In this document: positions 10,183-58,762 of the stretch, in pieces
How the letters are laid out: every line of letters begins with the position of its first letter
How positions within the stretch are numbered: position 1 is the stretch's first letter
Assembly: GCA_963827235.1 (NCBI GenBank)
Contig: CAWHAE010000016.1
Coordinates: forward strand, 1,156,002-1,220,001
DNA from: an uncultured bacterium
Lineage (GTDB): Bacteria; Chloroflexota; UBA5177; JANWHV01
Length of the DNA: 64,000 nt
Direction of reading: 5' to 3'
Translations under genes and position numbers: made by a program
The notes under the pieces: generated by a model
The model's database searches: none
Told to the model about the DNA's origin: nothing
What the model saw: only the letters and a program-made list of their open reading frames with translations

Positions 10183-10301
10183 ACAGGATCCTCCTTGTAC
10201 GCATGGTGCCTGCATCGCGCAATCTTCCCGCGGGTAGCCGCGTGGCATGGAGACCGCGAGCCTGGTTAGCGCGTGTCAGCAGATCCAGATTCGCACGCCT
10301 G

Positions 10302-10828: not shown

Positions 10829-11031
10829 TGCGAGTTGCCATTCCGACTTTGGCGGCGCACCATGGGGGCGCAGGTGCCTGGGTGATGAGGAGCTGCCCCA
10901 TGCGAGCGACGCTTTTCGCGGTACACTCACCCGAGCAACGCCGCTGCCATTCTTTGTCATTGCAGCCGAGCGCCTAGCTCGAGGGACGGCGTGGCACCGG
11001 GGCCCTGTGGTGGGAGGGCAAATCTGGAAAG

Positions 11032-30000: not shown

Positions 30001-31514
30001 TCAACAGGCAGGGGAAAGGGCCGGGCCGTCCAGGTGCAGCCCGGGAGCGGCGGGGAAGTCTCGACGACCCCATCCGTGACGGCTCAGGAGTCGCTTGAGG
30101 TTCTGTCCTGCGGCCGTCCAGAGCACTTGCACGTTCACCCGCCAGAGCCGCCGCAGCCGACAGCGCCGTAAGCCATGCCAGGACTTGGCCTCGGCGAAGA
30201 GCGGTTCGACCCACACGCTGCGCTTGCGCCGCGCCTTGTGGTAGGCCTCGGTGGCTTGGTAGGCGACCACGCGGTCGCGGAACTCCTCGTCGTAGTGGCG
30301 CGCGATGCTCCGGCCGTAGGCGGAGCCGGTGCAGCGCTCCCGGAGCGCACAGGCATCGCAGGTGGCGGGGTCGGCCCGGTACATCAGGAGTTGCTGGGTG
30401 TGGCTGGCTGACCGGTAGGGCAGGCTGGCCCCGTTGGGACAGATGTACCGGTCGCCGGCGGGGTCGTAGGTGAAGTCCTCTTTGTTGAAGTCTGGCTCAC
30501 TCCGTGCGAGGTGCGGCATGAGGACGTAGGCGCGCACCCCCTGCTCCTCAAGGGCGCGGATGATCGCCAGGGTGCCGTACGCCTTGTCGCCCGTGGCTTG
30601 CCGGAGCCGCAGGTGCCAGCGCATGCGGGTCCGCCAGATGAGGTCCAGCGCCGGCAGCTCCTCTGCGACCTCAGCCGGCGTCGCTAACGCTTCCAGAATG
30701 ATGCGGGCCGTGCCGCCGTCGACGACGTAGTGGCCTTGGTAGCCTCAAGCGCACCCCGTCGCGCATCGGCAGGTGAGTGGCATCTGGGTCGGTGGTGCTC
30801 ACCGCGTGCTCGGCCGTGCGCACCCAGACATGGTGGACGCGCCGCCGGTCCAGCAGCCCACTTTGCGCCAGCCAGTCGTGCCGGGTCGCGTTTGCTGCGG
30901 CCAGGGCAGGCGCCTCCTCCTCGCTCGGCCCGATGCGGGTGGGTTCCTCGCTGACCACCGCTGGCGGCTCGGGCCCCAGGGCGCCCTCGTTGATGGCAAA
31001 CAGGTCGTCCACATGCGCGCGGGCGGCGACGGCGAAGCGCGGCTGTATGGACTCCACTGAGGCGTCGGCCACCATCTTGGTGGCGTCGCTGTACAGCTCC
31101 TTGCCCCAGACCAGCCCGGCCGCCACGCAGCGCTCGACAATCTCGTCGAAGAAGCGCTGGAACACCTCCCGGCCGTAGCGTTCGCGGATGCGCGTCAGGC
31201 TGGAGTGGTCGGGCAGCGCTTCCCCGAGGTCGTATCCTATAATACCACCGTGCCCCGAGCCGATCTGCTACCAAGCGCATGAGCTGCCGCTCGGAGCGAA
31301 TGCCCTCCAAGAACATGACCAGCTCGAGCCTGAAGAAGACGACCGGATCGATGCTCGGGCGCCCGGCCAGGGCATAGTAGGGCGCCACCAGCTCGCGCAC
31401 GAAGGTGAGGTCCAGCACCCGCTCCACATGGCGATAGAAGTGATCGCGCGGCACCAACTGCTCGAGCGTCAGGTGCTCGACCGGCGCAAACTGCCGGACC
31501 TTCAGCCCCATCAT
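30001..31514 (-). CDS. IS1182-family transposase (several frameshifts)
   Basis: LEQLVPRDHFYR, GRPSIDPVVFFRL, STTDPDA, GDKAYG, YICPNG, VEPLFAEAKSWHGLRR. Confidence 0.85.
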
Positions 31515-32088: not shown

Positions 32089-32643
32089 CACGGGGTCAGT
32101 TTTTCAACAGACTGCGCCCCCCTACAGCCGCACTTAACGGGATCGCCACCACATGTGCACTTGTTGAAAAACTCATAGCACAAGATGTAGTAGGCGGATC
32201 GCTGAAGATGCTCGAAGTGCGGCTGTAGGGGCCCAAGGATCAAAGTTGAGGTCGCTTCCGGGCAGTTGTAGGTCGAGATCATGCCTGCGCGGTGTGATCG
32301 ACCCAGAGCATACTCATGCGTTGGCCCGAGATTCCATACATCTGGCCAAGCATCGTGATTGCAGGCTGGATGCCGACTTCAGGCCCTTCATTACGCTGCT
32401 GATCGCGGCAGACACTCGGACGGCCCGTCCCGCGGTGCGCGCGTGGGGCATACTACACGACCCGCGGACATTCAAGAGAAAACCGCTGCCGCATGCCGTT
32501 CAGGTCATGCCACTGAGGCCGGCCAATGGCGCTTTGGAGAAGCTCGCAGACGCCTTACCGCAACGTGCCCGCGACTTCTGGCGGGGAAATCGGCGGGGAA
32601 GCCGGATACTCAAGATCGAAAAAGAGCGATTTTGCCACGTTTA

Positions 32644-32950
32644 GAGAGCGGGTAACGAGACTCGAACCCACGTCCATCTGCTTGGGAAGCAGGCCGGGCT
32701 TCGTGCACGGTCATCCGCCGTCCTCTATCTTCCTCCGTCATCTCTGGTAGCTCCTTCGAAGATGGAGTTCTATGCAGTTCTCTGGACCGTCGTACGCGAC
32801 ACCTCACGTGTTAAAACGCGTGCTAAGAATACGGCTCGACCTTCGCCTAATGATGGGCTCATGCTTTATGCATTGATCACCCGATAACTGCCAACATACT
32901 GCCTGGAACCGGGTTACCCTCATAGTACTCGTGAGCTGAAATCGGCGCGA
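32644..32950 (+). repeat. Left ~300-bp island-boundary repeat (att-like), containing a minus-strand tRNA-Gly(CCC) mimic
   Basis: TCTATCTTCCTC..CTCTGGTAGC..CGAAGATGG.GTTCTATGCAGTTCT..GACCGTCGT..GCGACA.CTCACGTG.TAAAACG shared with 38250-38560. Confidence 0.75.
32647..32718 (-). pseudogene. tRNA-Gly(CCC)-like sequence with non-canonical D-arm, no CCA
   Basis: GCGGATG..CTGCTTCCCAAGCAG..GGGTTCGAGTCTC..TACCCGC, 72 nt. Confidence 0.65.
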
Positions 32951-33082
32951 TATGGTCAATGACGAATCCTCGGCTACCGTGCGCAGAAACCGCCCGTCGT
33001 CCGCACACCCTATCTACCTGCGCCAGTGCACTGGCCGGAGTATGCCACACACTGGTACTACTGAGCTGGGAGGCGAACGCGA

Positions 33083-35581
33083 TTGCTCGACGAAGTGGAC
33101 CAAGATCCATCGATTTCACGACGGGATGCCGTTGCTCACGAGATCATCGCGCTCCGGCGCCGCTTGACATCCCTCGAACAGGAGTGCTCCACTATAGGCG
33201 CTCGTCTTGCTGCATTGGAAATGGCGTGGTCTGCTGATGGTCCTGGCGATGGCAGCAAGGCAACTGTCGGCATCCCAAAGGCGTTCTCCACCGCCGCGAA
33301 GCTCACGCTGTTTGCTGACCTCTTCCGTGGACGCGAGGACGTCTTCCCGCGCCGCTGGGAGAACCTGAAGACGGGCAAGTCCGGCTATGCTCCCGCATGC
33401 CGCAACGAGTGGGTCCGCGGTATTTGCGGCAAGCCTTCGGTCAGGTGCAGCGAGTGCCCCAACCAGGCATTCATCCCGGCTACTGAGGACATACTGCGCG
33501 CACACCTCCAGGGACGATCGCCGGGGCGCAGCGGGGACTTCACGGCAGGCGTGTACCCCCTGCTGGTGGATGAGACCTGTTGGTTCCTCGCTGCCGACTT
33601 CGACAAGACCTGCTGGATGCGCGATGTCGCCGCCTACCGTGACGCAGCTCGAGCCCATGGCCTCAGCGTGGCCGTCGAGCGCTCCCGCTCGGGAAATGGT
33701 GCCCACGCCTGGCTCTTCTTCGCCAAGCCCATTCCAGTCACCGAAGCGAGAAAGCTTGGCGCGCTCCTCATTACGGCTGCCATGGAGCGCTGCCCCGACC
33801 TGGGCTTCGATTCCTACGACCGCTTCTTTCCCAGCCAGGACACCATGCCGCTCGGCGGCTTCGGCAACCTGATCGCTCTGCCATTGCAAGCCCGTCCGCG
33901 TGAGGCCGGCAACAGTGTGTTCGTCGACGACGACTTCCGCCCCTATGCCGACCAGTGGGCCTATCTGGGTACAGTCGATCGGATTGATCATGCAGCAGTT
34001 ACCAGATTGGTCGCTGACGCGGCAGCGGGCGGCCGTATTCTGGGCGTGCGCCTGCCTATGAGCGAGGACGACGAGGCGCCCTGGCTGCTACCGCCATCTC
34101 GGCGCGCAGCCGAAGCACCAATCAAGGGGCCGTTGCCCGCCTCGCTCGAGATTGTGCTCGGCAACCAGATCTACGTCGACCGGTCGCAGCTGCCGCCCGC
34201 CTTGGTCACCAGGCTCCTCCGCCTCGCAGCATTCCAGAACCCGGAGTTCTACGCCGCTCAGGCCATGCGCATGCCTACCTTCGGCAAGCCCCGCATCATC
34301 TCGTGCGCGGAGCTGTTCTCCAGACACATCGCCCTGCCACGCGGCTGTCTGGATGCGGTACTCACCCTGCTGGATGCGTTGGGCATCACTGTCGCACTGC
34401 GCGACGAGCGCAATCAGGGAGCGCCCATCGGCCTGCGGTTCCTGGGCGAGCTGACGCCCGAGCAAGAAGCCGCAGCGGCCGACCTCCTGCGGCACGATAC
34501 GGGCGTGTTGGCCGCGACGACCGCGTTCGGCAAGACGGTGGTGGCCGCGCAGCTGATCGCAGCGCGCGATCGCAGCACGCTCGTGCTGGTCCACCGGCGC
34601 CAGCTACTCGACCAGTGGGTAGCTCGGCTCCAGACCTTCCTCGACATTCCATCTGCCAAGGTCGGTGTCATCCAGGGCGGGAAGCGGAAGCCAGGGGGCG
34701 TCGTCGATGTCGCACTGATGCAGAGCCTGGTCCGCAAGGGCGAGGTCGCCGACCTGGTCGCCGACTATGGGCACTTGGTGGTCGACGAGTGCCACCATCT
34801 CTCGGCCGTCAGCTTCGAAGCGATTGCTCGCCAGGTCAAAGCGCGTTATGTATTGGGTCTCTCCGCCACCGTGACGCGCAAGGACGGCCACCACCCGATC
34901 ATCTTTATGCAGTGTGGACCGGTGCGCCATAAGGTCGACGCCCGGCAGCAAGCCGCTGCTCGGCCGTTCGACCACAAGGTGATTTTCCGGCATACGGCGT
35001 TCCGCCCAGCAGCCACGACGGATGAGAGAACGCCAATCCAGACACTCTATACACAACTGGCCGCTGACTCGATGCGGAATGATCTCATCGTCGCCGATGC
35101 CGCCGTCGCCATCACCGCCGGGCGCTCGCCGGTGGTCATCTCCGAACGTCGGGAACACGTGGCAGTGCTGGCTGAGCGGCTGGCCGCCTGCGCCCAACAC
35201 GTTGTGGTGCTGCAGGGCGGCATGGGCGCCCGCCAGTTGCACGCCGCCATGGAGTCCTTGGCCACCATTCCCGAGAACGAAACGCGCGTGCTGGTTGCAA
35301 CTGGGCGCTACCTGGGCGAAGGCTTCGACGATGCCCGCCTCGACACCCTGTTCCTGACGTTACCCATCTCCTGGCGGGGCACACTGGCCCAGTACGCTGG
35401 GCGACTGCATCGACTGCACGCTGCCAAGCGCGAGGTGCTCATCTACGACTACATCGACGTGCACGCTCCGCTGTTCGTCAAGATGGCTGCCAAGCGAGAG
35501 GTGGGCTATCGAAGTCTGGGGTACAGCGCAGTGCAGAACGCAGAGCTGAACTTCAGCCCGTCAGCAGTGCCCGACCAGTAG
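33083..35581 (+). CDS. AEP-like primase domain + SF2 (DEAD/ResIII) helicase (TOTE conflict-system type)
   Basis: LFRGREDVFPRRW, FLAADFD, ERSRSGNGAHAWLFF, GNLIALPLQ; AFGKT, VVDECHH, LGLSAT, QYAGRLHR. Confidence 0.85.
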   Translation: MLDEVDQDPSISRRDAVAHEIIALRRRLTSLEQECSTIGARLAALEMAWSADGPGDGSKATVGIPKAFSTAAKLTLFADLFRGREDVFPRRWENLKTGKSGYAPACRNEWVRGICGKPSVRCSECPNQAFIPATEDILRAHLQGRSPGRSGDFTAGVYPLLVDETCWFLAADFDKTCWMRDVAAYRDAARAHGLSVAVERSRSGNGAHAWLFFAKPIPVTEARKLGALLITAAMERCPDLGFDSYDRFFPSQDTMPLGGFGNLIALPLQARPREAGNSVFVDDDFRPYADQWAYLGTVDRIDHAAVTRLVADAAAGGRILGVRLPMSEDDEAPWLLPPSRRAAEAPIKGPLPASLEIVLGNQIYVDRSQLPPALVTRLLRLAAFQNPEFYAAQAMRMPTFGKPRIISCAELFSRHIALPRGCLDAVLTLLDALGITVALRDERNQGAPIGLRFLGELTPEQEAAAADLLRHDTGVLAATTAFGKTVVAAQLIAARDRSTLVLVHRRQLLDQWVARLQTFLDIPSAKVGVIQGGKRKPGGVVDVALMQSLVRKGEVADLVADYGHLVVDECHHLSAVSFEAIARQVKARYVLGLSATVTRKDGHHPIIFMQCGPVRHKVDARQQAAARPFDHKVIFRHTAFRPAATTDERTPIQTLYTQLAADSMRNDLIVADAAVAITAGRSPVVISERREHVAVLAERLAACAQHVVVLQGGMGARQLHAAMESLATIPENETRVLVATGRYLGEGFDDARLDTLFLTLPISWRGTLAQYAGRLHRLHAAKREVLIYDYIDVHAPLFVKMAAKREVGYRSLGYSAVQNAELNFSPSAVPDQ

Positions 35582-35735
35582 GTCACTGATCAGCAGAATC
35601 TGGCGATCGCGATGAGCGCCCACCGCTCTCGTCGACGCACCTGCATCGTCTATCGTGCACGTCAGCTGTTGAGCGGGGCTACAGGTACAGTTCGCCTTCT
35701 GTCGCAGCACAAGGCAGCGTCGTCAGGTGCAAATC

Positions 35736-36416
35736 TCATCCACGTCCGAGCCGTTTCGGTGGCGGCCAGGCATCCAGCGACGGGCAGGGCCCTACCAGAT
35801 ACACCGAGTCCCACGCACCGCCATCCTGCGGATAGTCGAGCGTCAGCTCCGCGGTGCCAAAGACGGTGGCCCAGATGGCCGTGAGCTGCGGTTCCGTGAT
35901 CTGACGGCGGCCGGACTCGACGACGACCACCCGTACCCAGAGCTGATCGCCTTGCACGCGGAAGTAGGCCTTCGGCGGCGGGCTCTCGGTGACCGGCACC
36001 TCCGTGCCCAGCTCCGCCAACGCGGCTTCCAGGGCCGGACGCGCAGCGCGCAGCACCCTCTCCATCAACCGTACCGGCGCGTCAGCATCGAAGTTGGCGA
36101 TGTCTGCCGATGTCGGCAAATGACTGTCACTACGCGCCAAGGTTTCCACCCGAGCGTACACCGTGTGGTCGCCCGCTGCCAGGAGCCAGCAGACGTCGCG
36201 GCCACGGTCATACCAGGTGACGGCTCGTACACTGCGGCCACCCGAGAGGTCGGCGTGAAGCTTCCGGAGCGGTCCGCCCACCCCTTGCATCGTCTCACCG
36301 CTCTCTGGGTCCAACCCGCGACGTTCGACGAAGACCTCGACGATGTGTTCAGCAACATCGGCTGAGAGTGCCGCAAAGTCATCCCAACACCGTGCAGTAA
36401 TCGCCAGGTCGCTCAC
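35736..36416 (-). CDS. Hypothetical protein, possible RelE-like toxin with C-terminal extension
   Basis: GTG start overlaps the upstream TGA; GPLRKLH..GGRSVRAVTWYD..VCWLLAAGDH resembles a RelE-fold pattern. Confidence 0.5.
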   Translation of the reverse strand: MSDLAITARCWDDFAALSADVAEHIVEVFVERRGLDPESGETMQGVGGPLRKLHADLSGGRSVRAVTWYDRGRDVCWLLAAGDHTVYARVETLARSDSHLPTSADIANFDADAPVRLMERVLRAARPALEAALAELGTEVPVTESPPPKAYFRVQGDQLWVRVVVVESGRRQITEPQLTAIWATVFGTAELTLDYPQDGGAWDSVYLVGPCPSLDAWPPPKRLGRG

Positions 36417-36742
36417 GGCCTCGGCTGGCTGCGGGCGCGCAGGCGCGCCAGCGCCGCACTCACCGACACCGAGCCATCCGGTGTCGCGCCAGGCACCTCC
36501 TCGCGGAGGGAACGGATCGCCGCCAGCTGGGCAGAGGGATCGGGAGAAAACCGCAGATCGAGCGCGGCTTGGAGCAGTGCTCGGTAGTCGCGGCCCATCA
36601 GCTCCTCGCGCAAGGCCAGTGCCTCCTCGACGATGGTGGCCTTTTCCTTCTGTTCGATGGCCGCCGCAACGTCGAGCGCGCGTGCGCGGTCTACTGCGAG
36701 CTTGAGATTGGTTTGTACCTTCTGCCTCGACGTCGTGGCCAT
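36413..36742 (-). CDS. Hypothetical protein, RHH-like putative antitoxin
   Basis: KVQTNLKLAVDRARALDVAAAIEQKEKATIVEEAL; GCTA(T/C)C direct repeats upstream at ~36758-36779. Confidence 0.5.
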   Translation of the reverse strand: MATTSRQKVQTNLKLAVDRARALDVAAAIEQKEKATIVEEALALREELMGRDYRALLQAALDLRFSPDPSAQLAAIRSLREEVPGATPDGSVSVSAALARLRARSQPRP

Positions 36743-37029
36743 GTCGTGCCCCCACTTGCTATCTAGCTATCCAGCTACCTATTCTACCGCAGTTGCGGGG
36801 CACATGTCGAGCGGCTACTGCCAGTTCGGTGCGTTACCTCGTAGCAGGACTTCTGTATGCAATGAGCCATCCGCTTCCTCAGAACCCGGTAACCTGAGGC
36901 CTCGCCGGTATACCGGAGGTGGCATGTCACAGTGACTGGGGCGCGTCACGTACCTACCGCGTGATCGGCCAGGCCGGTGCCGTCGCCGACTGCCACTGCA
37001 GGCGAAATCATGAATACGGAGCATCGATA

Positions 37030-38169
37030 ATGGCACGAGGCAGCATTCAGGTACGCAAAGGTCCACGCGGCATCGCCTATCGCACTCGCGCCGAGCACGG
37101 TCCAGATCCACTGACGGGCACACGCAAGCAACGATCCAAGACCTTCCTGGTTCGGCGTGAGGCCGAAGCGTACCTCACGCGCTGGCAGGCGGAAATCGAG
37201 CGCGGTATCGCCGTCGAGCCGAGCACGGTGACCGTCGGCGAGCAACTGCGCTACTGGCTGCAGTCCTACGCACGGAGCCGTGTAAGCGTGCAGACCTTCG
37301 CCGAGTATGAACGCACCGTCCGCGCCTACATCGCTCCCATTCTCGGAGCGGTGCCACTGCAAAAACTGGGCGTGGCGCATCTGGAAGCCTTCAAAGGAGA
37401 ATCGCTGGCTCGCGGCCTGGGTGCCAGGACAGTCAGCGTCTGCCTTATGCGGCTGCAGCAGATGCTCGCCCAGGCCATTGACCTGCACCTGCTGGCGACG
37501 AACGCGGCCGTGCACGTGGAGAAGCCCCGGGAGCTGAGTCGCCGAGGCCGGACCTGGACGGCCGAGCAAGACCGCCGCTTCCTCGCTGTCGCTGACCACA
37601 GTCCCTGCGCGCCGATCTGGGCCGTGTACCTGGGTAGCGGTATGCGGCGCGGCGAGGGTCTGGGCCTGCGCTGGGAAGACGTCTCCTTCCTCTATTGGAC
37701 GTTGCGCGTCGAGCAGACCATCGGCCTGGAGCGGGGCAGAACGGTGGTCAAGCCGCGACCAAAGACGGAGTCATCCCGGCGCACCATCGCCGTCGACGCC
37801 ACGATCATCGCCGCACTCGCGGCACTGCGGGAGCGCCAGCAGGTCACACGTGAGCAGGCCGATGACGCATGGCAGGATCGCGATCTGGTCTTCGCCACAC
37901 GCCACGGCCAGCCCATCAACCCGAACAACTTGCTCCGCGACTTCCGTCGCCTGATCGCCCTCGCCGGTGTGCCGCGCATCCGGATCCACGATCTGCGCCA
38001 CACGCACATCACGCTGGCCATTCAAGCCGGCGCGCCAATCGCCGCAGTGAGCCGCCGCGCTGGCCATGCACGGGTGAGTACCACCATGGACATCTACGCT
38101 CAGGTCACAGCCGACATGCACGCGGAAGTCGCCGATCGCATCAGCGGGCTGCTCTTCGCGCCGCGGTGA
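37030..38169 (+). CDS. Tyrosine recombinase / phage-ICE integrase
   Basis: MARGSIQ N-terminal arm-binding domain, GMRRGEGLGLRW, RIHDLRHTH, AGHARVSTTMDIY. Confidence 0.95.
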   Translation: MARGSIQVRKGPRGIAYRTRAEHGPDPLTGTRKQRSKTFLVRREAEAYLTRWQAEIERGIAVEPSTVTVGEQLRYWLQSYARSRVSVQTFAEYERTVRAYIAPILGAVPLQKLGVAHLEAFKGESLARGLGARTVSVCLMRLQQMLAQAIDLHLLATNAAVHVEKPRELSRRGRTWTAEQDRRFLAVADHSPCAPIWAVYLGSGMRRGEGLGLRWEDVSFLYWTLRVEQTIGLERGRTVVKPRPKTESSRRTIAVDATIIAALAALRERQQVTREQADDAWQDRDLVFATRHGQPINPNNLLRDFRRLIALAGVPRIRIHDLRHTHITLAIQAGAPIAAVSRRAGHARVSTTMDIYAQVTADMHAEVADRISGLLFAPR

Positions 38170-38207
38170 CCAAGGTCACGATCGGCCGTGACCAATTCGT
38201 GACCAAG
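38165..38207 (+). repeat. GTGACCAA x3 plus inverted GGTCAC: integrase arm-type site candidates
   Basis: gGTGACCAAggtcacgatcggccGTGACCAAttcGTGACCAAg directly after the int stop codon. Confidence 0.6.
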
Positions 38208-38249
38208 CGCAATGATGAGTCTGGCTTAAGCGCGATTTAGGCGTAAGAA

Positions 38250-38560
38250 GAGGGCGGGTGACCGTGCACGAAGCCCGGCCTGCTCCCAAGCAGAATGTCG
38301 CCGGTTCGAGCCCGGTCACCCGTCTTTGTCTATCTTCCTCTGTCTTCTCTGGTAGCGCCATCGAAGATGGCGTTCTATGCAGTTCTGTAGACCGTCGTTC
38401 GCGACATCTCACGTGCTAAAACGGGTGCTTAAAGTGCGGCTTGAGACTCGCCCTGTGGTGGCCTTCTCTCTGATGCTCGCATTGCCCGCCTAGCTCTGAT
38501 GTTCTGCCTGGGATAGGCTGCCCTCATGGTACTATTGAGATACATGTTGCCGCGATACTT
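38250..38560 (+). repeat. Right ~300-bp island-boundary repeat (att-like), containing a plus-strand tRNA-Gly(CCC) mimic
   Basis: Homolog of 32644-32950. Confidence 0.75.
38254..38323 (+). pseudogene. tRNA-Gly(CCC)-like sequence with non-canonical D-arm, no CCA
   Basis: GCGGGTG-ACCGTGCACGAAGCCCGGC-CTGCTCCCAAGCAG-AATGTC-GCCGGTTCGAGCCCGGT-CACCCGT. Confidence 0.65.
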
Positions 38561-38577
38561 CTATCGACGAGGTCACC

Positions 38578-39015
38578 ATGGCTGTCAGAACAATCCCAGT
38601 GCACCTGCCTGAAGACCTCTACGCTCACCTCGCGGCACAGGCCCAGAGCGTGCCGCACAGTCGGTCGACGAGCTGGCGGCGCAGACCCTCGCCGAGCGGC
38701 TCCCAGCTGCGTCTGATGCCGAGTCTGTCGCCTGCGCTGCAGGCGGAGCTAGAGGCCATGACCCAACTGTCCGATGACGCCCTCTGGGCAATCGCGGGGA
38801 GCACGGTAAACGCGGATAAGCTCGCCCTCTATGACCTGCTCATCGAGCGACAGAACGCCGGCCCGTTGACCCCGGATGGGAAGCAGTTGCTCGCCCAGTT
38901 GCGCGACGAGGCTGACGCCTTGATGGTGCGCAAGGCGCACGCATATGCCCTCTTGCGCCAGCGGGGACATACGCTGCCGAGCCTGGACGACCTGGCACCG
39001 TCCGATCGGCGATGA
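38578..39015 (+). CDS. RHH-like/antitoxin-type protein upstream of HNH
   Basis: IPVHLPEDLYAHL; LSDDALWAIA...LMVRKAHAYALLRQRG; ATGA overlap with the next gene. Confidence 0.6.
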   Translation: MAVRTIPVHLPEDLYAHLAAQAQSVPHSRSTSWRRRPSPSGSQLRLMPSLSPALQAELEAMTQLSDDALWAIAGSTVNADKLALYDLLIERQNAGPLTPDGKQLLAQLRDEADALMVRKAHAYALLRQRGHTLPSLDDLAPSDRR

Positions 39016-40410: not shown

Positions 40411-43338
40411 TCAGCCGAGCGTGAGCGGCGCCTGCTCCACGCGCTCAAGGTCTTTGCGCGCGCCTAGCCGCCGGAAGATAGCGGCTGCCTCCGCCAGTCG
40501 TGCGCGTGTCGCAGCCGGCTCGCCGCACGCCAGGTGCAGGTGGCCGTAGGCCTCGAGCAGCCGTCCCTCGCCGTGCGGATAGGGCAGCGCGCGGGCCAGG
40601 GCCAGCCCTTCGTCCAGGGCCTGTGCCGCCGTGCTGCGGTCATCGAGTCGCAGAGCCACCAACGCATGCACCCGCAGTGCGCCGACCAGGGTCAGCCGGT
40701 ACTCCGCCTCGCGCGCCCGACACAGCGCCTGTGCAATCACCTCCGCGGCCCGCGCCGTTTCGCCCAGCTCCAGCTGTGCCCATGCCAGCACCGGCAGCAC
40801 GTAGGCTGTCACATCGCGCTCCTCGGCGCCTTCACCACGATCGAGGAGCCGACGCAGCCGCGCCTCGGCCGTTGCCGGTCGCCCTTGCAACAGGTCGAGT
40901 TCTGCCAGGTAACTCTGCGCCACTCTCTCTTGCGCGTGGACAAATGTGCCGACGTGCAGTGTGATGGCGCTGCACTGCTCCAGGTAGCGCGTGGCCTCCT
41001 CCCAGGCGCCCTCCGCCAGGCAGAGACGACCAAGCTCGAGCGCGGGCCCGGCAGCGAGCTCGCCGGGCAACTGCTGGAGCGGCTCGAGACGCGCAAGCGC
41101 ACGTCGTGCCCCTGGCCAGTCTCCCTCGAAGAAGGCGAGTGCCGCGATCCGAAAGGTCGCGCTCGCGATCAGCGCCGGATCGGCCAGCTGCTCGCCCAGG
41201 GCGAGCGCGTGCGCGGCCAGCGACCAGGCCCGGCTGAATTCGCCTCTGTTGTCATGGATGTTCGCTGCTTGACACGCTGCGAACGCGACCGTGTCCAGCT
41301 TGCCCACCGCCTCTGCCAGGCGCGCCGCCTCCTGGAGCGCCGGTAGCGCTTCTGCGTCCCGGCCCACAATCGACAGCAGGACGCCGCGTCGCGCCACGAC
41401 CTCTGCCTGCAGGGCGCGATCGCCGACGGCGCGCGCCAACTCCACTGCTCGCGCGCTGGTCGCCACCGCCGCCTGGTGTTCATCGCGGAAGTAACGGAGC
41501 CGTGCGAGGGCGGCGTACACGGCGGCAAGGCTGCGCGAGCGGCCCCGCGCTTCCAGCGGCGCCACCACCGGCAGCAGGCAGGCCAGTCCGGCCTCAATGC
41601 TATCGGCCGTGAAGCGGCGGATGTGTAGGTGGGCGCTGGCCGCCAGCACCCGGCCTAGGCCCTCGGCGTCGCCGGCTCCGCGCAGGGCTGCTGCGGCCTG
41701 CCCCAGGACCTCCAGTGCCGCGTCCATGCGAAGCGCCGTGCCCAGTACCTCGGCCAGCTTCTCGCGTACTCGCGCCGCCTCCAGCAGACGGCCGAGCCCA
41801 TCGAGTCGGGCCACGGCCTCGCGATAGTACTGTTCGGCGGCCTCGTAAGCTGCTGTGGCACGCGCGCGGTCGCCGGCCAGCTCCAGGTAGCGCAGCGCTT
41901 GCTCTAGCTCCCCGCTCCGCGCGTAGTGGTGGGCCAGCAGCTCTACCGGCGGCTCGCCCGGCTGCTGCTCCAGCACTTCCGCCACGCGGCGATGCAGCAG
42001 CGCGCGGCGGGCCTGCCCCAGCCCGCTCTCGACGACTTCCCGGATTACGTCATGCACGAAGCCGTACGCGTCCTCGCCCACCTCTTCCAGCAGGCCAGCC
42101 CGGCACGCCGCCTCCAGGCCGTCAAGTACCGCCGTCTCCGGCTCCTCCAGCAGGCGCAGCAGCAGGGCACGCGCGGTCACCCGACCGGCCACAGCCGCCG
42201 CGTCCACCAGCGACCGCGCCACATCCGGCAGTGCCCGTAGCCGCCGCTGCAGGCTCTGCCGGAGGTCCCATGGTACGCCCTGCCGCACCACCGCCTCGCC
42301 GCCCTCCTCCAGGCTGCGGGCGTAGCTGACCAGAGAGAAGGGCACGCCGCCGACCCGCTGCACCACCTGCGCGACCTGCCCTGCCTCTACACGTGCAGGC
42401 CCACCGCACAGCTGCGTAACCAGCGCTGCCGCGTCGTGGTCGGCGAGCGGCGGCAGCGGTCGCTGTGCAGCCAGCTGGGCCTCGGCAAGCTCGGCGAGGG
42501 TCAGCATGAGGGGATGCTCCGGCGCGACGTCAGTGTCGCGATAGGTGCCGACGATGCGCAGCGCCGCGGCAGGCGCGTGGCGGAGCAGCGTGGCCACAAG
42601 GTCGAGCGCGTCGGACCCAGCCCATTGGAGGTCGTCGAGCAGTAGCAGCGTCCCCGCCGGCCCTGCGACATTGCGAAGTAAGCGTCCCACCGCGACGAAC
42701 AGAAGACGCCGCTCTTGCTCCAACGACAGCGTCCACCCGGGCAGCGGCTCAATCTGGTCCGCTGCCAGCTCGGGGAGCATGCGGACCAGCCAGGCGCAGC
42801 CGCGCAGGTCGGCCTGCCGCTCGGCGGCCGAGCGCCCGGCGAGATGGGCATGTACGGCCTGCAGCAGCGGCGCGAAGGGCTGCTGCCCGCCGGCACGCGT
42901 GCAGCCACCAGACACGACGGCCCAGCCCAGCCGGGCGGCGACGCGTGCTGCCTCCTGGAGCAGGCGCGTCTTACCGAAACCGGGCTGGCCTGCGAGAAGC
43001 AGCAGCGGTGAACCCTTACCGTGCAGATGGCGGTCAAGCAACGCCATCTCCCGCTCGCGTCCCACGAGGATTGGTATCGCCTCAGGCGCCATCGGGCCTG
43101 CCAGTCTGCGGGCTGCCGTCTCGAGTTGCTGCTCGGCAGTGGCGTCGAGGCTCAAGGCGCGGGCCAGCAGGCGCAGGGTCACCGGGCGCGGGGCGCGGTT
43201 GATGCCCCTTTCCAGGTCGCTGATTCCCCGGGCGGAGATGCTTGCGCGCTCGGCCAGCGCTTCCTGGGTGAGGCCAGCGGCCTCCCGCTGCCGCTTGAGC
43301 AGCACGCCAAACGCGGAACCATGCTGCTCGCTGACCAT
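40411..43338 (-). CDS. XRE-HTH + AAA/STAND ATPase + TPR regulator
   Basis: REAAGLTQEALAERASISARGISDLERG; LVGRERE, GQPGFGKTRL, LLLDDLQWA; helical repeat C-terminus. Confidence 0.92.
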   Translation of the reverse strand: MVSEQHGSAFGVLLKRQREAAGLTQEALAERASISARGISDLERGINRAPRPVTLRLLARALSLDATAEQQLETAARRLAGPMAPEAIPILVGREREMALLDRHLHGKGSPLLLLAGQPGFGKTRLLQEAARVAARLGWAVVSGGCTRAGGQQPFAPLLQAVHAHLAGRSAAERQADLRGCAWLVRMLPELAADQIEPLPGWTLSLEQERRLLFVAVGRLLRNVAGPAGTLLLLDDLQWAGSDALDLVATLLRHAPAAALRIVGTYRDTDVAPEHPLMLTLAELAEAQLAAQRPLPPLADHDAAALVTQLCGGPARVEAGQVAQVVQRVGGVPFSLVSYARSLEEGGEAVVRQGVPWDLRQSLQRRLRALPDVARSLVDAAAVAGRVTARALLLRLLEEPETAVLDGLEAACRAGLLEEVGEDAYGFVHDVIREVVESGLGQARRALLHRRVAEVLEQQPGEPPVELLAHHYARSGELEQALRYLELAGDRARATAAYEAAEQYYREAVARLDGLGRLLEAARVREKLAEVLGTALRMDAALEVLGQAAAALRGAGDAEGLGRVLAASAHLHIRRFTADSIEAGLACLLPVVAPLEARGRSRSLAAVYAALARLRYFRDEHQAAVATSARAVELARAVGDRALQAEVVARRGVLLSIVGRDAEALPALQEAARLAEAVGKLDTVAFAACQAANIHDNRGEFSRAWSLAAHALALGEQLADPALIASATFRIAALAFFEGDWPGARRALARLEPLQQLPGELAAGPALELGRLCLAEGAWEEATRYLEQCSAITLHVGTFVHAQERVAQSYLAELDLLQGRPATAEARLRRLLDRGEGAEERDVTAYVLPVLAWAQLELGETARAAEVIAQALCRAREAEYRLTLVGALRVHALVALRLDDRSTAAQALDEGLALARALPYPHGEGRLLEAYGHLHLACGEPAATRARLAEAAAIFRRLGARKDLERVEQAPLTLG

Positions 43339-51934: not shown

Positions 51935-54900
51935 ATGGAGCCAGCCGCTCGCGCAATGGCCCGCGGCGCCGCTACGCTGCCCGACGCAGGTACGTTGACC
52001 TTCATGTTCACCGATGTGGAAGGCAGTACCCCGCTCTGGGAGCGGCACGAAGGCATCATGCGCGCCGTCACCGCCCGCCACGACGCGCTGCTGGACGCCA
52101 TCATTGGCGCGCACGGCGGGCAACGGGTGCGTGAGCGCGGCGAGGGCGACTCCATCTTCGCCGTGTTCGTGCAGCCCGGCGGCGCGGTGACGGCGGCACT
52201 GGCAATGTCGCAGGCGATGCAAACCGAGCCGTGGCCGGCCGAGACCCCTATCCGCATTCCGCATGGGGCTGCATACCGGCAGTGCCCAAATGCGGGCCGG
52301 CGACTACTATGGGCCCGTCGTGAACCGCTGTGCACGGATCCGGGGGCTCGGTCACGGTGGCCAGATCCTGCTCTCGGCAGCCACCGCGTCGCTCGTTCAG
52401 GGCGTGCTGCCGGCGAAGGCGAGCCTGCGCTCACTGGGTGCGCACAGCCTGAAGGGTATTTCCGAGCCCGAGGAGGTGTTCCAGCTCTGCCATCCCGACC
52501 TCCCGGGGGACTTTCCCCCACTGCTCTCCCCGCAAGCGCCCCGTCACAACCTGCCGCTTGCGCTTTCCAGTCTGATCGGGCGGGAAGCGGAGCAGGGCGA
52601 TGTGTTGGCCCTTCTGGCAACAGCGCGGCTGGTCACACTGACCGGGAGCGGCGGCGTGGGCAAGACTCGCCTGGCGCTGGCGGTGGCCGCCGAGCTGATG
52701 GACCAGTATGCCGACGGCATCTGGCTGGTCGAGCTTGCACCCTTGAGCGAGCCATCGCTCGTCCCCGCTGCCGTGGCGCAGGTACTGGGAGTGCGTGAGG
52801 AACCGAGCCGTCCGTTGACGGCTACCCTGGTCGACCACTTAAAGGACAAACGCCTGCTCCTATTCCTGGACAATTGCGAGCACCTGGTGGCGGCCTGCGC
52901 CGATCTCGCGGCGGCGCTGCTCCGCGCCTGTCCCGGGCTCAGCATGCTGGCCACCAGTCGCGAGGGCCTGGAAATCGCCGGGGAGCAGCGCTGGCGGGTA
53001 CCCTCCCTCTCCGTCCCCGACCCCAGGCACCTGCCCCCACCCGAGCTGACCGGCAGCTTCGAGGCCGTACGGCTCTTCGTGGCTCGGGCCAAAGAGCGGC
53101 ACGCCGACTTCGCGCTCACGGCCCAGAACGCGCGGGCCGCTGCGCAGATCTGCGCTCGCCTGGATGGCATCCCGCTGGCCATCGAGCTTGCGGCCGCGCG
53201 CATGCCGGCACTTGGCGTGGAGGGCCTCGCCGCCCGGCTGGACGACCGCTTCAGCCTGCTCACGGGCGGCTCCCGCGACGCCCTACCCCGGCAGCGGACG
53301 CTGCGCGCGGCGCTGGCCTGGAGCTATGACCTGCTGACGGAGCAGGAACAACTGCTCCTCGATCGACTCTCTGTCTTCGCGGGCGGCTGTACGCTCGCCG
53401 CGGTGGAAACCGTGTGCGCGGGAGACGGCGTCGAGAAATGGGAAATGCTCGACCTGCTGGGTGGCCTGGTCAACAAGTCGCTGGTGCAAACCGAGGAGCG
53501 ACAGGGTGGTGAGATGCGCTACACCCTGCTGGAGACGGTGCGACAGTATGGGCAAGAGCGGCTGGCGGCTGGCGACACGGCGGAGGGTCCACAGGACCGG
53601 CACCTGGCTTGCTTCCTGGCGCTCGCCGAGGAGGCGGCGCCGCAGATCGCCGGACCGGAGCAGGCGGCGTGGCTGGAGCGGCTGGAAATCGAGCACGACA
53701 ATCTGCGAGCTGCTCTGGGCCGGGCAGTGGATCATGAGCGTTCCACCCTGGCACTGAACCTGGTTGGAGAGTTGTGGAGTTTCTGGTCCGCTCGCGGCCA
53801 TCTGAGCGAGGGCCGGCGCTGGCTGGATCTCGCGCTCGCAATGCCAGGAAGCGGCCTGGACGCCGATGAGGCAGTGGCGCGGCTCGTGGCGCTGCACGGC
53901 GCCACGATGCTGGCTATCGGACAGGCCGACCTCCCGCACGCAACGGAGCTCGCGGCACTGAACATGACTCAGGCACGGGCACTTGGTGATCCTGGGCATC
54001 TGGCGCGCGCCCTGGACGTCCAGGGGCTGCTGGCGCGATTGCAGGGAGACCATACCCAGGCTATTGCCGTGCACCAGGAGGCGCTAGCTCTGGCACGGCA
54101 GACTATGGACAGGGTCCTGATGGCTGATGCATTCCTCGCGCTAGCGATGGATTTTGGCTTCGCCGGCGATTTTGAGCGATCCGATCCACTATTCGCGGAA
54201 GGCCTGGCCCTCTGTCGTGCCGTCGGCGACAGACGGCGCGTGGCGGACCTGCTCTGCAGTCTTGCCCTGCAGGCCACCATGCGTGGGGCACATGTGCAGG
54301 CGGAGACGAGGGCAAGGGACGCCGCGGCACTCTTTCGCGAGCTCGGCGATAGCGGTAACCTGGCGCAGGCACTGATGGTACTCGGCATAGCCATGACCTG
54401 GCAGGGTGCGCATGCAGAGGCGCGCACGCACCTGGAGGAGAGCCTGGCACTGCGTCAGGAGCGCGGTGATCGACATGGTGCCGGCTACTCGCTTTCGGCG
54501 CTTGCTCTAGCCAGATTGCTGGAAGGGGAAATCGACGCCGCAATGGCTCTGGCCGAAGACGGCCTCGCACTGCTGCGCGAAAGTGGCGACCGTGCGCAGC
54601 AAGCAATCGACCTTGCCTTCTTGGCGCATGGAGCCATTTGGCGCGAGCACCGCGAGCGTGCGGTGGAGTTGTTGGTAGAAAGCCTCACCCTCTACAAGGC
54701 CATGGGCGCCCGCCGGTTCCTACCGTGGGTCTTCGAGGGGACGGCGCGCATTATGGCTGGGCGCGCGGAGTTGACGTCCGCCGTACGGTTCTACAGTGCG
54801 ATGGCTAACGAAGCGCAAGCGACTGGATTTAGCTGGGTACCACTCAACCGGCCTGCCTGCGAGGAAACGATGGCGACCGCAAAGCGGGAGCTCGGGAGCG

Positions 54901-54986
54901 CGACATTTGCAGAAGAGTGGGCGGCGGGCGAGGCCATGACACCGGACGGGGCCATAGCGCTCGCGCTCGAGAGCTTGGGCCGCTGA
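51935..54986 (+). CDS. Class III nucleotidyl cyclase + STAND ATPase + TPR protein (frameshift near 52258)
   Basis: TFMFTDVEGST, GEGDSIFAVF, GLHTG, DYYGPVVNRCARI; [32 protein letters not shown]. Confidence 0.88.
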
Positions 54987-55662: not shown

Positions 55663-58600
55663 CTACTGACCCAGCAGCTCGTGCTCGACGCGCTCGACGT
55701 CCTTTGAGGCGCCCAGCCGCCGGAAGATGGCCAGCGCCGCGTCAAGTCGTGCGCGCGCGGCCGCCGTTTCGCCGCGCGCCCTGTGCAGCCGGCCGTAGAC
55801 CTGGAGCAGGCGCCCCTCTCCGTGGGGATAGGGCATGCTCCGCGCCACGGCGAGGCCGTCCTCCAGCGCGCTTGCAGCATCGTCCCAGCGTGCCTGCGCA
55901 ATCGCCGCCAGCGCCTGGACGCGCAGCGCGTGGGCCAGGCCCAGCCGGCAAAGGCCAACGCGTCCGCGCCTCACGGCTTCTGCCGCCGTGGCAGCGGCTC
56001 GATCGACTTCGCCGAGCTCCAGCTCGGCCCAGGCCAGCATCGGCAGGACGTACTGCGTGACGACTCGTTCTTCGAGCCCCGATCGGTCCAGAAGGGGGAG
56101 AAGCCGCGCCTTGGCCGCCGCCGGCTCCCCGGTGAGGATGTCGCGCTCGGCCAGGTGCCCGTGGGCCACCCGCCGCAGGTTGTCGTTGCCGGTCTCGGCG
56201 TAGGCGGTCAAGCTCTCCTCCAGGTAGCGGGTCGCCTCCTCCCACGCCCCCTCGGCCGTGCACAGCCGTCCAAAGTCCATCCGGCACGCCGTATACCAGG
56301 TACCTTCGGTGAGCCCGAGCTCGGCAGTTGTGGCGATCGCTTTCTCCAGACACGCGTGCGCCCCCGGCCAGTCCCCGGTCAACAACGAGCTCAAGCCCAG
56401 GCGCACCATGCTCCAGACGCTGAGCAGCGGATGGCGCAGGCGCTCTGCCAGCTCGAGCGCGCGCTCGGCACACCGGCGATCTTGCTCGTACTCGCCACGC
56501 TCCTCGTGGATCCACGCCAGGATCGCGAGGGGCACGACGAGCGCTGCGGGGTCACCACTCGCTTCGGCGTGCCGCAGCGCTTCTTCTTGGGCTTGCAGCG
56601 CCTCATCGCTGCGGTTGAGAGACAAGAGGAACGAGCCGAGACTCTGCTGGATAGAGGTCAAAACCTCGTCATCGCCTGCGGCGCGCGCGGCGGCGACTGC
56701 GTGCTCGGCCGCCGCCAGCGCCTCGGCATATCGCCCGTCGTCGAGGTAGATCCCCGCCAGCGCGTTGTAGACCAGCGCAAGACTGGAGGACGGGCCATGA
56801 GACTCCAGCTGCGCCACGATAGGCTGCAGACGGGCCAGGCCCGACTTCGTCGCTCCTCGGGCTACCTGGACGCCCGCTATCTGCGCCTCTATCCGGCCCA
56901 GACCATTCAGGTCTCCGGCCTGGCGCAGCGCGGCCGCGACTCCCTCCAACGCCGCCTGCTGGGCATCAAAGCGCACGGTGCTGGCCAACGCCTGACCCAG
57001 CTTCTGGCCCGCGCGTGCCAGGTCGGACATGCGGCCTAGCCCCTCCAGGCAGTCGACTAGATCCCGATAGTGCTCGGCCGCCGCGGCATACGCATAGCGC
57101 GCCACTGCCAGATCGCCCGCCTGCTCCAGATAGACCGCGGCTCGCGGCTGCTCGCCTGCCTGGCGGAAGTGGTAGGCCAGCGCCTCTACGGGCGGTGTTT
57201 CGCGCTGCTGTTCCAGCGACTCGGCCACGCGCCGGTGCAGGAGACGGCGCCTTGCCGGCTGCAGGCTGCCTTCGATAGCCTCGCGGACCACGTCGTGCAC
57301 GAAGCCATAGCTATCCACCCCCACTTCCTCGAGCAGGCCAGCGTGGCAGGCCCGCTCCAGGGCTTCGAGCATATCCTGTTCGGATCGAGCCAGCACGGCC
57401 AGGAGCAGTGTGCGGGAGGCCACGCGACCTATCACGGCGGCCACTGCCAACAGCTCGCGCGCCGGCTCGGGCAGCGCCAACACCCGCCGCTGAATACTCT
57501 GCCCAAGGTCCCAGGGCAGGTCCCCGGGCGCCTCCTCGCCTGCTTCCTCGCGCTCCAGGCCGGATGCGTAGCTGACCAGGTAGAAAGGCACCCCGCCGGT
57601 GCGCCGCGCGATGTGCGCCGAGAGCACGTCTGCGGTCCGAGTGCCTAGCAGGCGTCCGAGGAGGTCCTGCGCGTCCTGTTGCACCAACGGCCGCAGGCGA
57701 TGCTGGAGCGCAGCGTGCCGCTCGGCCAGCTCGGCGAGGAGGATAAGCAGAGGATGCTCCGGCTCCACGTCGGTGTCGCGATAGGCTCCGATGACGCGCA
57801 CGGGAGACGACGGTGTGCGATGCAGCATGGAGGCCAGCAGCTGCAGCGCATCGCTCTCCGCCCACTGCAGATCGTCCAGTACCAGGAGCGTGCCGGCTCG
57901 TCCGGCCACGTTGACGAGAAACTGCTGCACGGCGTCGAACATCAGCCGCCGCTCCTGGAGGGGCGGCAACGGCCAGGTCGACAGCGGCACGATCTCGTCA
58001 GCTGCCAGCTCGGGGAGCATGCGCGCAAGCCAGGCACATCCGCGAAGATCGTGCCGGCGCTGTTCTGGTGTGCAGCCGACTATCTGCCACTGCAGTGCTT
58101 GCAGCACCGGGGCAAAAGGCTGCTGGCCTCCGGCGCGGGTGCAGCCGCCCTGCAGCACGCGCCAGCCCGTGGCACGGGCGCGCTCGGCCGCTTCCTGCAG
58201 CAGGCGCGACTTGCCGATGCCGGGCGGCCCGGCCAGGATCAGCACAGGAGGACCCTGGCCGGCGAGGTGGCGATCCAGCACAACCAGCTCTCGACCGCGG
58301 CCGATGAGCGGCACGGCCTGCTCGGCCTGCAACCGCACGGGCCACACGGCAGGAGGCTCCCGACCATCGGACGATATGGCGTCCGGGATCTCGGTCACCG
58401 GCTGGATGCGGTCGGGCGCAGACTCGGCTACGGCGTGATCGCGGTCGGCCGGCTTGCGCGGGGCCGGCGGGCCAGCCGCGAGCAGCCGGCCGCGCTCGTC
58501 GTCCACGAGTCCGAGCCCATCCGCGAGCCGGCGCAACGTCTCCCTGAGTGGCCGGCTCTCGCCGCGCTCGAGCGCCTGGATGCTGCGCACGCCCAGCCCG

Positions 58601-58692
58601 GCTCGCTCGGCCAGGGCCTCCTGCGTGAGCCCTGCTGCCAGCCTGTAGTCCCTGAGCAACGAACCGAATGAGCTCGACGGTGCTTCAGCCAT
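55663..58692 (-). CDS. XRE-HTH + AAA/STAND ATPase + TPR regulator
   Basis: FGSLLRDYRLAAGLTQEAL; GPPGIGKSRL; LVLDDLQWA; paralog of 40411-43338. Confidence 0.92.
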   Translation of the reverse strand: MAEAPSSSFGSLLRDYRLAAGLTQEALAERAGLGVRSIQALERGESRPLRETLRRLADGLGLVDDERGRLLAAGPPAPRKPADRDHAVAESAPDRIQPVTEIPDAISSDGREPPAVWPVRLQAEQAVPLIGRGRELVVLDRHLAGQGPPVLILAGPPGIGKSRLLQEAAERARATGWRVLQGGCTRAGGQQPFAPVLQALQWQIVGCTPEQRRHDLRGCAWLARMLPELAADEIVPLSTWPLPPLQERRLMFDAVQQFLVNVAGRAGTLLVLDDLQWAESDALQLLASMLHRTPSSPVRVIGAYRDTDVEPEHPLLILLAELAERHAALQHRLRPLVQQDAQDLLGRLLGTRTADVLSAHIARRTGGVPFYLVSYASGLEREEAGEEAPGDLPWDLGQSIQRRVLALPEPARELLAVAAVIGRVASRTLLLAVLARSEQDMLEALERACHAGLLEEVGVDSYGFVHDVVREAIEGSLQPARRRLLHRRVAESLEQQRETPPVEALAYHFRQAGEQPRAAVYLEQAGDLAVARYAYAAAAEHYRDLVDCLEGLGRMSDLARAGQKLGQALASTVRFDAQQAALEGVAAALRQAGDLNGLGRIEAQIAGVQVARGATKSGLARLQPIVAQLESHGPSSSLALVYNALAGIYLDDGRYAEALAAAEHAVAAARAAGDDEVLTSIQQSLGSFLLSLNRSDEALQAQEEALRHAEASGDPAALVVPLAILAWIHEERGEYEQDRRCAERALELAERLRHPLLSVWSMVRLGLSSLLTGDWPGAHACLEKAIATTAELGLTEGTWYTACRMDFGRLCTAEGAWEEATRYLEESLTAYAETGNDNLRRVAHGHLAERDILTGEPAAAKARLLPLLDRSGLEERVVTQYVLPMLAWAELELGEVDRAAATAAEAVRRGRVGLCRLGLAHALRVQALAAIAQARWDDAASALEDGLAVARSMPYPHGEGRLLQVYGRLHRARGETAAARARLDAALAIFRRLGASKDVERVEHELLGQ

Positions 58693-58762
58693 GGTCACCT
58701 TCACGGCTGCGCGGCTATCCCTTTAGCCTACCAGACTGAGCGAGACGATACGGAACATCGCT

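Follow-up and report, generated by a model that had tools for sequence, protein, structure and literature searches.

A tRNA-Gly(CCC)-derived attachment core that appears inverted in place beside a small integrative element of an uncultured Chloroflexota bacterium

Islands placed in tRNA genes by tyrosine integrases were reportedly treated by Williams in 2002, and Bzymek and Lovett are said to have described template-switch changes at bacterial quasi-palindromes in 2001. Programmed inversion switches include fimS with FimB/FimE, the Hin and Gin systems and the shufflons, and recombination sites that act as folded single strands include the attC of integrons and the attP of CTX phage. Excerpts of one island survey present islands in tRNA genes, tandem arrays of them and anticodon-centred attP sites as standard, with 125 tandems and 2083 'A' sites among 3919 islands (PMC4383910), and plastome inversions of 5-50 bp between hairpin-forming inverted repeats of 11-24 bp are called widespread in an excerpt that refers to them (Kim & Lee 2005 via PMC12928735). 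The locus reported here lies in a 64-kb window, the whole stretch of DNA that was analysed (genome G000, contig C16, positions 1156002-1220001; its right edge coincides with the contig end), from an uncultured Chloroflexota bacterium whose genome is a metagenome-type assembly of 8 Mb with 9% contamination. A tyrosine integrase gene in this window is bounded by two direct repeats, each with a tRNA-like unit, and the two units, T-left and T-right, face in opposite directions. The explanation held here with moderate confidence is that the units are attachment (att) junctions of small integrative elements targeting tRNA-Gly(CCC), that the core of T-right was inverted once in place, and that the element between them, E1, has thereby been trapped.

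The direct repeat was located at 32700-32859 and 38305-38464 (160 nt at 81%, family D4), and BLAST extended it to 32622-32952 against 38228-38557 (E 6.5e-46; Table 1). The tRNA-like units match in the inverted sense (32649-32726 against 38322-38246, 78 nt at 83%, E 3e-16, pair I6). The reverse complement of T-left is identical to T-right in 60 of the 72 columns of a global alignment, as against 50 of 77 columns, with many gaps, when both are read in the same orientation, and the 5' segment called 'a' is identical in the two units at 25 of 26 positions. Each unit is then followed by a direct repeat of ~235 bp, R, which has the same orientation at both ends. A first-pass annotation had described direct repeats with a flipped tRNA-like unit at the two ends and had placed the inversion breakpoints at the acceptor-stem halves; repeat search, BLAST and global alignment bore out the arrangement, and the breakpoints stand as it gave them. 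One Logan contig of sequencing run X1 (218 nt, 0 differences) covers the left junction at 32580-32797; it may derive from the source sample and so is not independent. A contig loose end at 38284 in the same run belongs to the tRNA-Gly of another organism. Among the sequencing runs that hold parts of the sequence, none contained more than 0.08 of the sampled words, and none was an RNA run.

Table 1. Features of the att region and of element E1 (coordinates are those of the window)
Feature	Position	Strand	Description
F (flank)	32230..32646	-	Follows the intact tRNA-Gly(CCC) gene in G001; here follows T-left on the minus strand
T-left	32647..32718	-	Putative distal att junction: element-derived 5' 26 nt ('a') and displaced tRNA-Gly(CCC) 3' part
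R-left	32719..32952	+	Putative non-coding arm of E1, from att core to first gene; homologue of R-right
AEP (TOTE-type) primase fused to SF2 helicase	33083..35581	+	832 aa, open frame
Small overlapping open reading frames	35612..36935		Uncertain gene calls
Tyrosine integrase	36919..38169	+	416 aa, open frame
Three direct GTGACCAA repeats and an inverted GGTCAC	38166..38206	+	Start-to-start distances 22 and 11 nt
X	38227..38253	+	Resembles the reverse complement of F, in the orientation seen at the left site
T-right	38254..38323	+	70-nt att core, quasi-palindrome, inverted relative to both flanks
R-right	38324..38557	+	Putative arm of E2, a second element or relic related to E1

The tRNA likeness of the units was examined with the Rfam tRNA model (RF00005, gathering score 29 bits) at relaxed thresholds. 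Both were matched over their full length, at their exact coordinates and strand, with scores below the threshold: 20.0 bits (E 0.14) for T-left and 16.7 bits (E 1.2) for T-right. ARAGORN called 0 tRNA genes in the 64-kb window, and Rfam at gathering thresholds found nothing in it. T-left and T-right are not tRNAs. A D-arm with a D-loop is absent from both, the D region being the reverse complement of the T-arm; the acceptor stem of T-left has one mismatch, and the anticodon loop of T-right has 6 nt, a 1-nt deletion from the normal 7. The only tRNA-Gly(CCC) gene of the source genome lies on another contig (C5:33036-33108), and both units align with it in the acceptor, anticodon and T regions, while the D region fails to align. 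This gene was also used to check whether the odd D-arm is simply that of the host's normal tRNA-Gly; it is not, as the genuine gene has a normal D-arm. The tRNA features listed in the first-pass annotation survive in part: the units do align to the tRNA model, but the anticodon loop of T-right is short by a nucleotide, and the missing CCA is uninformative because the genuine tRNA-Gly(CCC) genes of the source genome and of G001, the genome of a sister species in the same genus, also lack an encoded CCA. Over its 3' 39 nt, T-right agrees at every position (100%) with the tRNA-Gly(CCC) sequence of G001 but not with that of the source genome, which fits a part contributed by the attP of an element. 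The 19-mer shared by the units, ACCGTGCACGAAGCCCGGC, has exactly 2 copies in the 8-Mb genome, at T-left and T-right; allowing 2 mismatches added two further matches in the genome, both unrelated.

The unusual 5' half mirrors sequence of the same unit. Aligned with the reverse complement of the T-arm, the 19-nt pseudo-D-arm agrees at 15 of 17 positions and needs one insertion of 2 nt; 0 of 20000 shuffles reach that score. Over a longer span, the 5' 26 nt of T-right and the reverse complement of its 3' 24 nt are identical at 21 of 24 positions. The reading as a full-length tRNA mimic whose 5' half was rebuilt is thus not supported: that half repeats the 3' part in inverted form, and the unit is a quasi-palindrome, not a cloverleaf mimic. 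The ends of T-right form an inverted repeat (CGGGTGACCG / CGGTCACCCG; 10 bp perfect, or 11/12) around 48 nt. Taken as a whole, the att core forms a quasi-palindrome of 70 nt, with the anticodon stem-loop, a symmetric structure in its own right, at the centre. Because the pseudo-D-arm mirrors the T-arm, T-right folded as single-stranded DNA gives one long hairpin and not a cloverleaf (-26.7 kcal/mol, z -6.93; 0 of 200 shuffles equally stable). The fold of T-left, whose 3' part has another T-arm, reaches -15.5 kcal/mol (z -2.0). The dyad symmetry is absent from all three of the other partial copies of tRNA-Gly(CCC) in G001 and G003 and from the 2 genuine genes. The mirror copy could have arisen by selection for a symmetric binding site, with GTGACC on both sides, or a tRNA copy, once captured, could have undergone template-switch 'perfection'. 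In the palindrome the left arm lies 4 nt nearer the anticodon stem than the right arm, an offset that agrees cleanly with neither idea. The flipped copy is the one with the strong hairpin, T-right, which favours a single spontaneous inversion after the tandem had formed.

The left flank points to the original target. In G001 an intact tRNA-Gly(CCC) gene (C8:920038-920111) has a homologue of F directly downstream: 32230-32692 of the window matches C8:920530-920068 at 82% over 466 nt, and T-left is colinear, on the minus strand, with the 417-466 nt that follow the intact gene. Upstream of the genuine tRNA gene on C5, the source genome is syntenic with G001. As this upstream side is on C5 and F is found at T-left, the tRNA gene and its downstream flank would now lie apart in the source genome, the state that an insertion should leave behind. 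T-left has the appearance of a classic displaced 3' fragment of a tRNA-integrating island, preceded by foreign sequence, and with F it supplies the displaced 3' tDNA fragment and intact-gene flank by which Islander recognizes the far end of an island. Partial copies of tRNA-Gly(CCC) in G001 and G003 begin at CTTCCCAAGCAG / CTTCCC, in the anticodon loop, and for this reason tRNA-Gly(CCC) is suggested to be a hotspot at which anticodon-centred insertions occur in this genus.

The orientation to be expected of an att site was sought among relatives of the integrase. The best homologues in the phylum are 32-41% identical to it, with none above 41%, and in 185,579 species genomes 53 pattern matches yielded 0 confirmed close relatives. 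The tallies given here over 60 relatives, integrase homologues and 400 genomes of the phylum include the unpublished genomes G055, G018, G271, G343 and G175; none of the loci analysed in detail is from an unpublished genome. At 29 loci with the best integrase homologues the tRNA layout was counted by hand: 19 have a tRNA or tmRNA that converges on the 3' end of the integrase gene, ~65-222 nt away, while the remainder have a co-directional tRNA (1/29), an upstream tRNA (1/29) or none (8/29). T-right is at the expected position after the integrase, yet on the same strand. Taken together, this integrase-tRNA rule, the colinearity of F and the same-orientation X and R argue that T-left is native and that T-right has been turned relative to both its flanks. 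The far end could be located in 4 of the 13 integrase-family regions that were fetched, and there the identity block starts in the anticodon loop (2), the anticodon stem (1) or the T-loop (1).

The one co-directional layout is that of locus L056 (G027 C2:880574-884686), where two real tRNA-Ser genes lie downstream on the integrase strand. Elsewhere in the source genome, an integrase fragment (C10:992714-993001) that is 39% identical to the C-terminus of the E1 integrase converges on tRNA-Arg(CCG) at 993124-993199; it is another relic with the canonical integrase-tRNA layout. The distal att sites L127 and L131, from the unrelated genomes G146 and G354, share repeated GCGGAC / GGACGCCT motifs in their element-side arms, which are probably the integrase-binding repeats of another subfamily.

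Because the frames of the primase-helicase and the integrase are open, E1 looks like a 5.5-kb tyrosine-integrase element with otherwise intact genes. The primase-helicase matches Pfam AEP-TOTE (1.6e-90) and ResIII (1.1e-20) as well as PHROG DNA helicase and primase families, and the small reading frames behind it have no Pfam or PHROG match. The integrase, with a probable start at the ATG at 37030, matches Pfam Phage_integrase (9.4e-22), Phage_int_SAM_3 and the integrase family phrog_1 (1.6e-65); its stop codon lies 85 bp from T-right, so the gene stands next to one end of the element as in Islander-type islands. The space between holds three of the 5 exact copies of GTGACCAA in the window. 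GTGACC occurs 8 times in 38100-38580, as against 0.78 per kb window-wide, an enrichment of about twenty-fold, and is also found at both ends of T-right. The GTGACCAA repeats are putative arm-type protein-binding sites of the integrase-proximal arm of E1. Behind R-right the genes are unlike those of E1 (a 145-aa open reading frame without a match, an HNH fragment and STAND-type ATPase genes), and no second integrase was found in the window. As different genes follow each R, the presence of two related elements or relics in tandem is supported, of which the second, E2, would be either a relic or an element that continues past the contig end. Two proposals of the first-pass annotation are retained here: that the units are recombination sites of the integrase element, and that related elements or relics with different genes behind each R stand in tandem.

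These observations can be accommodated in a simple scheme. A tyrosine integrase would insert elements into tRNA-Gly(CCC), with the shared block beginning in the anticodon loop and the tRNA locus reading on the minus strand in the window. From left to right, the layout would be F, T-left, E1 (R-left through to the integrase gene and the GTGACCAA arm), T-right and the R-right of the older relic E2, and 'a' would be an element-derived inverted copy of the T-arm and the acceptor 3' strand. At the E1/E2 junction, the hairpin-prone core would have turned around where it stood, with the perfect 10-bp end repeats as the limits of the inversion, most likely through a single replication template switch or through recombination within the hairpin stem. 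Small hairpin-loop inversions of plastid genomes come about by events of this kind, and a hairpin-prone unit bounded in this way is likewise open to template switching during replication. The att cores of E1 would now be inverted with respect to each other, with presumed overlap regions of different length; because of this, and of the 1-nt deletion in the presumed crossover loop of T-right, excision of E1 would be blocked though its genes are intact. Histories without an in-place flip were worked through by hand reasoning. Inversion of the whole of E1 by the integrase, integration in either alignment (the antiparallel one included) and integration into an already flipped site all failed to give the observed arm order; among the histories considered, inversion of the core in place alone yields it.

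Several points weigh against this scheme. No piece spanning the right junction was found among the run contigs examined, and neither the att site nor R had a relative in any collection searched. F is present in just 1 of the 4 other genomes of the genus, and synteny with G001 breaks to its left; F could be an old element arm instead of host DNA. No integrase lies beside the genuine tRNA gene on C5, where a nitrate reductase operon is found instead, and the link from C5 to the window is unproven, as the window's contig end lies in an IS66 copy. The resemblance of X to the flank (AAGCGCGATTT against AAGAGCGATTT, in the same register) is weak, its local score being reached by 185 of 5000 shuffles. 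Because of the 4-nt offset between its arms, a single clean template switch fails to give the exact palindrome. L056, the sole counterpart of the T-right polarity in the 29 loci, makes the convergent rule less than absolute, and the canonical polarity assumed for the attP of E1 comes from the left junction and from distantly related integrases.

Comparison with the described systems places most of the locus on familiar ground. E1 resembles Islander-type tRNA islands in having an integrase at one end and, at the far end, a displaced 3' tRNA fragment with the original flank, and such islands also share with this locus the putative start of the identity block in the anticodon loop, the tandem of related elements and, in relatives, an integrase convergent on the tRNA. 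The integrase end of such an island should have tDNA, either intact or regenerated, or else a tandem junction of canonical type, in the orientation of the far-end fragment; T-right is none of these, and its core has apparently been turned around on the spot. On the element side, furthermore, half of the core is an inverted copy of the tRNA T-arm and acceptor. The Islander filter discards tRNA-fragment pairs in opposite orientation, according to the excerpts of the survey (PMC4383910), and would drop a locus such as this one. T-right shares with the plastid hairpin inversions a short inverted repeat (10 bp perfect, 11/12) around an inverted segment of ~48 nt and a very stable stem-loop; its dimensions fit the reported 11-24 bp repeats and 5-50 bp segments, with a stem close to the lower limit and a loop close to the upper limit reported. 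It differs from them in lying in a bacterial chromosome, inside a site-specific recombination site, and in being one event known from the paralogous left site alone, without a population or phylogenetic series. The programmed switches likewise have a segment bounded by inverted repeats beside a tyrosine recombinase gene, and here, too, orientation would alter the action of the recombinase; the T-right segment is, in contrast, much shorter, its neighbouring recombinase is an integrase of the ordinary phage type that has arm-type repeats, and one orientation is seen. Like attC and the CTX attP, T-right combines imperfect palindromic symmetry with the capacity to form a long hairpin. Unlike them, E1 encodes an integrase of the Phage_integrase and Phage_int_SAM_3 type (phrog_1), which is not an integron integrase or XerCD, and T-left, with its right half from the target, forms no strong hairpin; conserved extrahelical bases are not definable from the two copies here.

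Relatives of the att core were sought more widely. A 28-mer of the core had no match, at up to 3 mismatches, in the 400 other genomes of the phylum, and when R and the tRNA-like units were sought in the 60 relatives the tRNA part alone was matched. The exact pseudo-D 19-mer gave 14 matches in the genome collection and 29 in the metagenome collection, mostly in coding sequence and none in a tRNA-like context, and all are put down to chance; those at L098 and L105 were rejected as an unrelated GC hairpin beside another tRNA. Viral contigs contained 0 matches for the pseudo-D 19-mer and 0 for an R motif. The suggestion that such sites are used by this integrase family finds no backing in these searches, with the core in 0 of 400 phylum genomes and all 14 + 29 matches of the 19-mer lacking the tRNA-like context. 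Homologues of the primase-helicase were found in 13 of the 400 genomes (two of these being G271 and G343), and 10 loci from published genomes were fetched, none of which has R, the tRNA-like unit or the E1 integrase, so that they offer nothing with which to compare the att site.

One rival explanation accepts the inversion and makes it recurrent or programmed: the core would flip by hairpin flip-flop, by the integrase or by a GTGACC-binding protein, leaving E1 excisable in one state and locked, or invertible, in the other. The 10-bp perfect inverted repeat does contain GTGACC, which is repeated three times in the adjacent arm; 'a' is identical at 25 of 26 positions when R is ~81% identical, which suggests constraint; and hairpin-loop inversions of plastomes are described as flip-flop in an excerpt on them (PMC12928735). 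A single orientation is seen per site, however, no dedicated invertase gene was found by Pfam or PHROG among the window proteins, the 1-nt deletion in the T-right loop looks like decay, and the collections searched hold no second example. In addition, 48 bp between repeats is very short for a recombinase synapse. The switch is accordingly regarded as unlikely, and the word 'invertible' in the first-pass annotation goes beyond the one inversion event that can be deduced, as nothing shows a programmed or reversible flip. A more specific version, in which the element would have exchanged the D-arm side for a mirror copy of T-arm and acceptor and the att core would be a purpose-built dyad-symmetric site with GTGACC on both sides of the crossover, toggled between an excisable and a locked (or invertible) state by a low-frequency hairpin flip, is judged quite improbable; if true, flipping of a dyad-symmetric core would be a new form of mobility regulation, through attachment-site polarity.

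The inversion might also not exist. If the assembly had misoriented the 70-bp right core, the true sequence would be a canonical tandem junction, and a metagenome-type assembly with 9% contamination, in which a strong hairpin can disturb sequencing and polishing, leaves some room for such an error. End repeats of 10-12 bp are, on the other hand, far below assembly k-mers and read lengths, and an exact in-place inversion is an unusual assembly error; with unique flanks and a left junction reproduced exactly by a separate contig, an artefact is considered distinctly unlikely. It is very unlikely that the E2 core is naturally opposite in polarity to its arm R, the junctions having come from independent integrations. 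The distant relative L056, with its co-directional integrase and tRNA, and 2 of the 10 primase-helicase loci, with a real upstream tRNA on the primase strand, lend this some plausibility, but hand-derived integration products never give the order F - T(minus) - R ... integrase - T(plus) - R with both R direct, and although 'a' and R each have their homologue at the other site, the two sites connect them via opposite core ends. A functional tRNA-like RNA, expressed from the element as a decoy or mimic, is highly improbable. What recommended it was that the tRNA model matched both units end to end and that their stems have kept their pairing; against it, both units score below the Rfam gathering score with no ARAGORN call, there is no D-arm, the T-right loop has 6 nt and the T-left acceptor stem a mismatch, the predicted fold is a long hairpin and not a cloverleaf, and the apparent pairing is accounted for by the DNA palindrome. 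The tRNA-decoy RNA of the first-pass annotation fails on the same grounds, scoring below all tRNA thresholds and having a damaged anticodon loop in T-right.

The remaining observations concern the surroundings of the att sites. R-left has no Rfam family match, and a sigma-70 promoter scan of both R regions gave 0 matches, other promoter types lying outside its coverage. A hairpin is conserved within R (32750-32768 and 38355-38373), the left copy reading GCTCC-TTCGAAGAT-GGAGT and the right copy GCGCC-ATCGAAGAT-GGCGT, with T-to-G on one stem strand and A-to-C on the other; this compensatory pair would mark a stem or a symmetric protein site. Homologues of the primase-helicase have AbiE pairs, transposases, PIN and DUF4411 proteins and one Xer-like integrase as neighbours, and they adjoin AbiEi/AbiEii toxin-antitoxin pairs in 2 of the 10 loci (L145:339-1978, L146:4344-5845); a place in defence islands may be as common for this protein as a role as replicase. 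TOTE is expanded as TPR, OB, TBP, Effector conflict systems in a portion of the source that treats them (10.1101/2025.09.15.676423); this has no bearing on the att site.

In G001, ARAGORN reports a tRNA-Gly(CCC) gene at what is a distal partial copy of it (L041:4922-4993; about C8:1027921-1027992). Foreign sequence, which by chance begins with the acceptor-like GTGGGTG, makes up the 5' half of this copy, and the call is likely a false one at an island end. Transposase genes lie on both sides in the window: a split IS5/IS1182-like gene (DUF772 and DDE_Tnp_1_6; 30001-31514, minus strand) just left of F, and, at the contig end, an IS66-family gene (62566-63939, minus strand) that is the probable reason why the assembly stops there. 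A paralogous cluster of STAND-type ATPase/TPR genes (HTH-AAA_16-TPR and NB-ARC/TPR) is found rightward of the element, at 40411-43338 (minus), 52263-54986 (plus), 55663-58704 (minus) and 59629-61326 (minus), which have repeated DNA segments in common (families D2 and D9-D11). Further left in the window are two direct repeats (1285-1822 against 10301-10839; 300 and 174 nt at 90-91%, ~9 kb apart) with a 458-nt inverted pair (2048-2505 against 9725-10182; 76%) between them.

Most of what looked like a flipped tRNA mimic is of a familiar kind, a hotspot tRNA gene with the att junctions of integrative elements in tandem. General significance is limited by there being one metagenome-derived genome and no relatives found. 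The uncommon features are an attP core with an element-side inverted duplicate of the T-arm and acceptor, and the exact inversion of that core in place. Opposite-orientation tRNA-fragment pairs, which island finders throw out according to the survey excerpts (PMC4383910), constitute a blind spot of such programs. A natural, extended dyad-symmetric attP could inform how integrases recognize their sites and, if the inversion is real, turning the core would be a simple route by which an intact mobile element is trapped in the chromosome.

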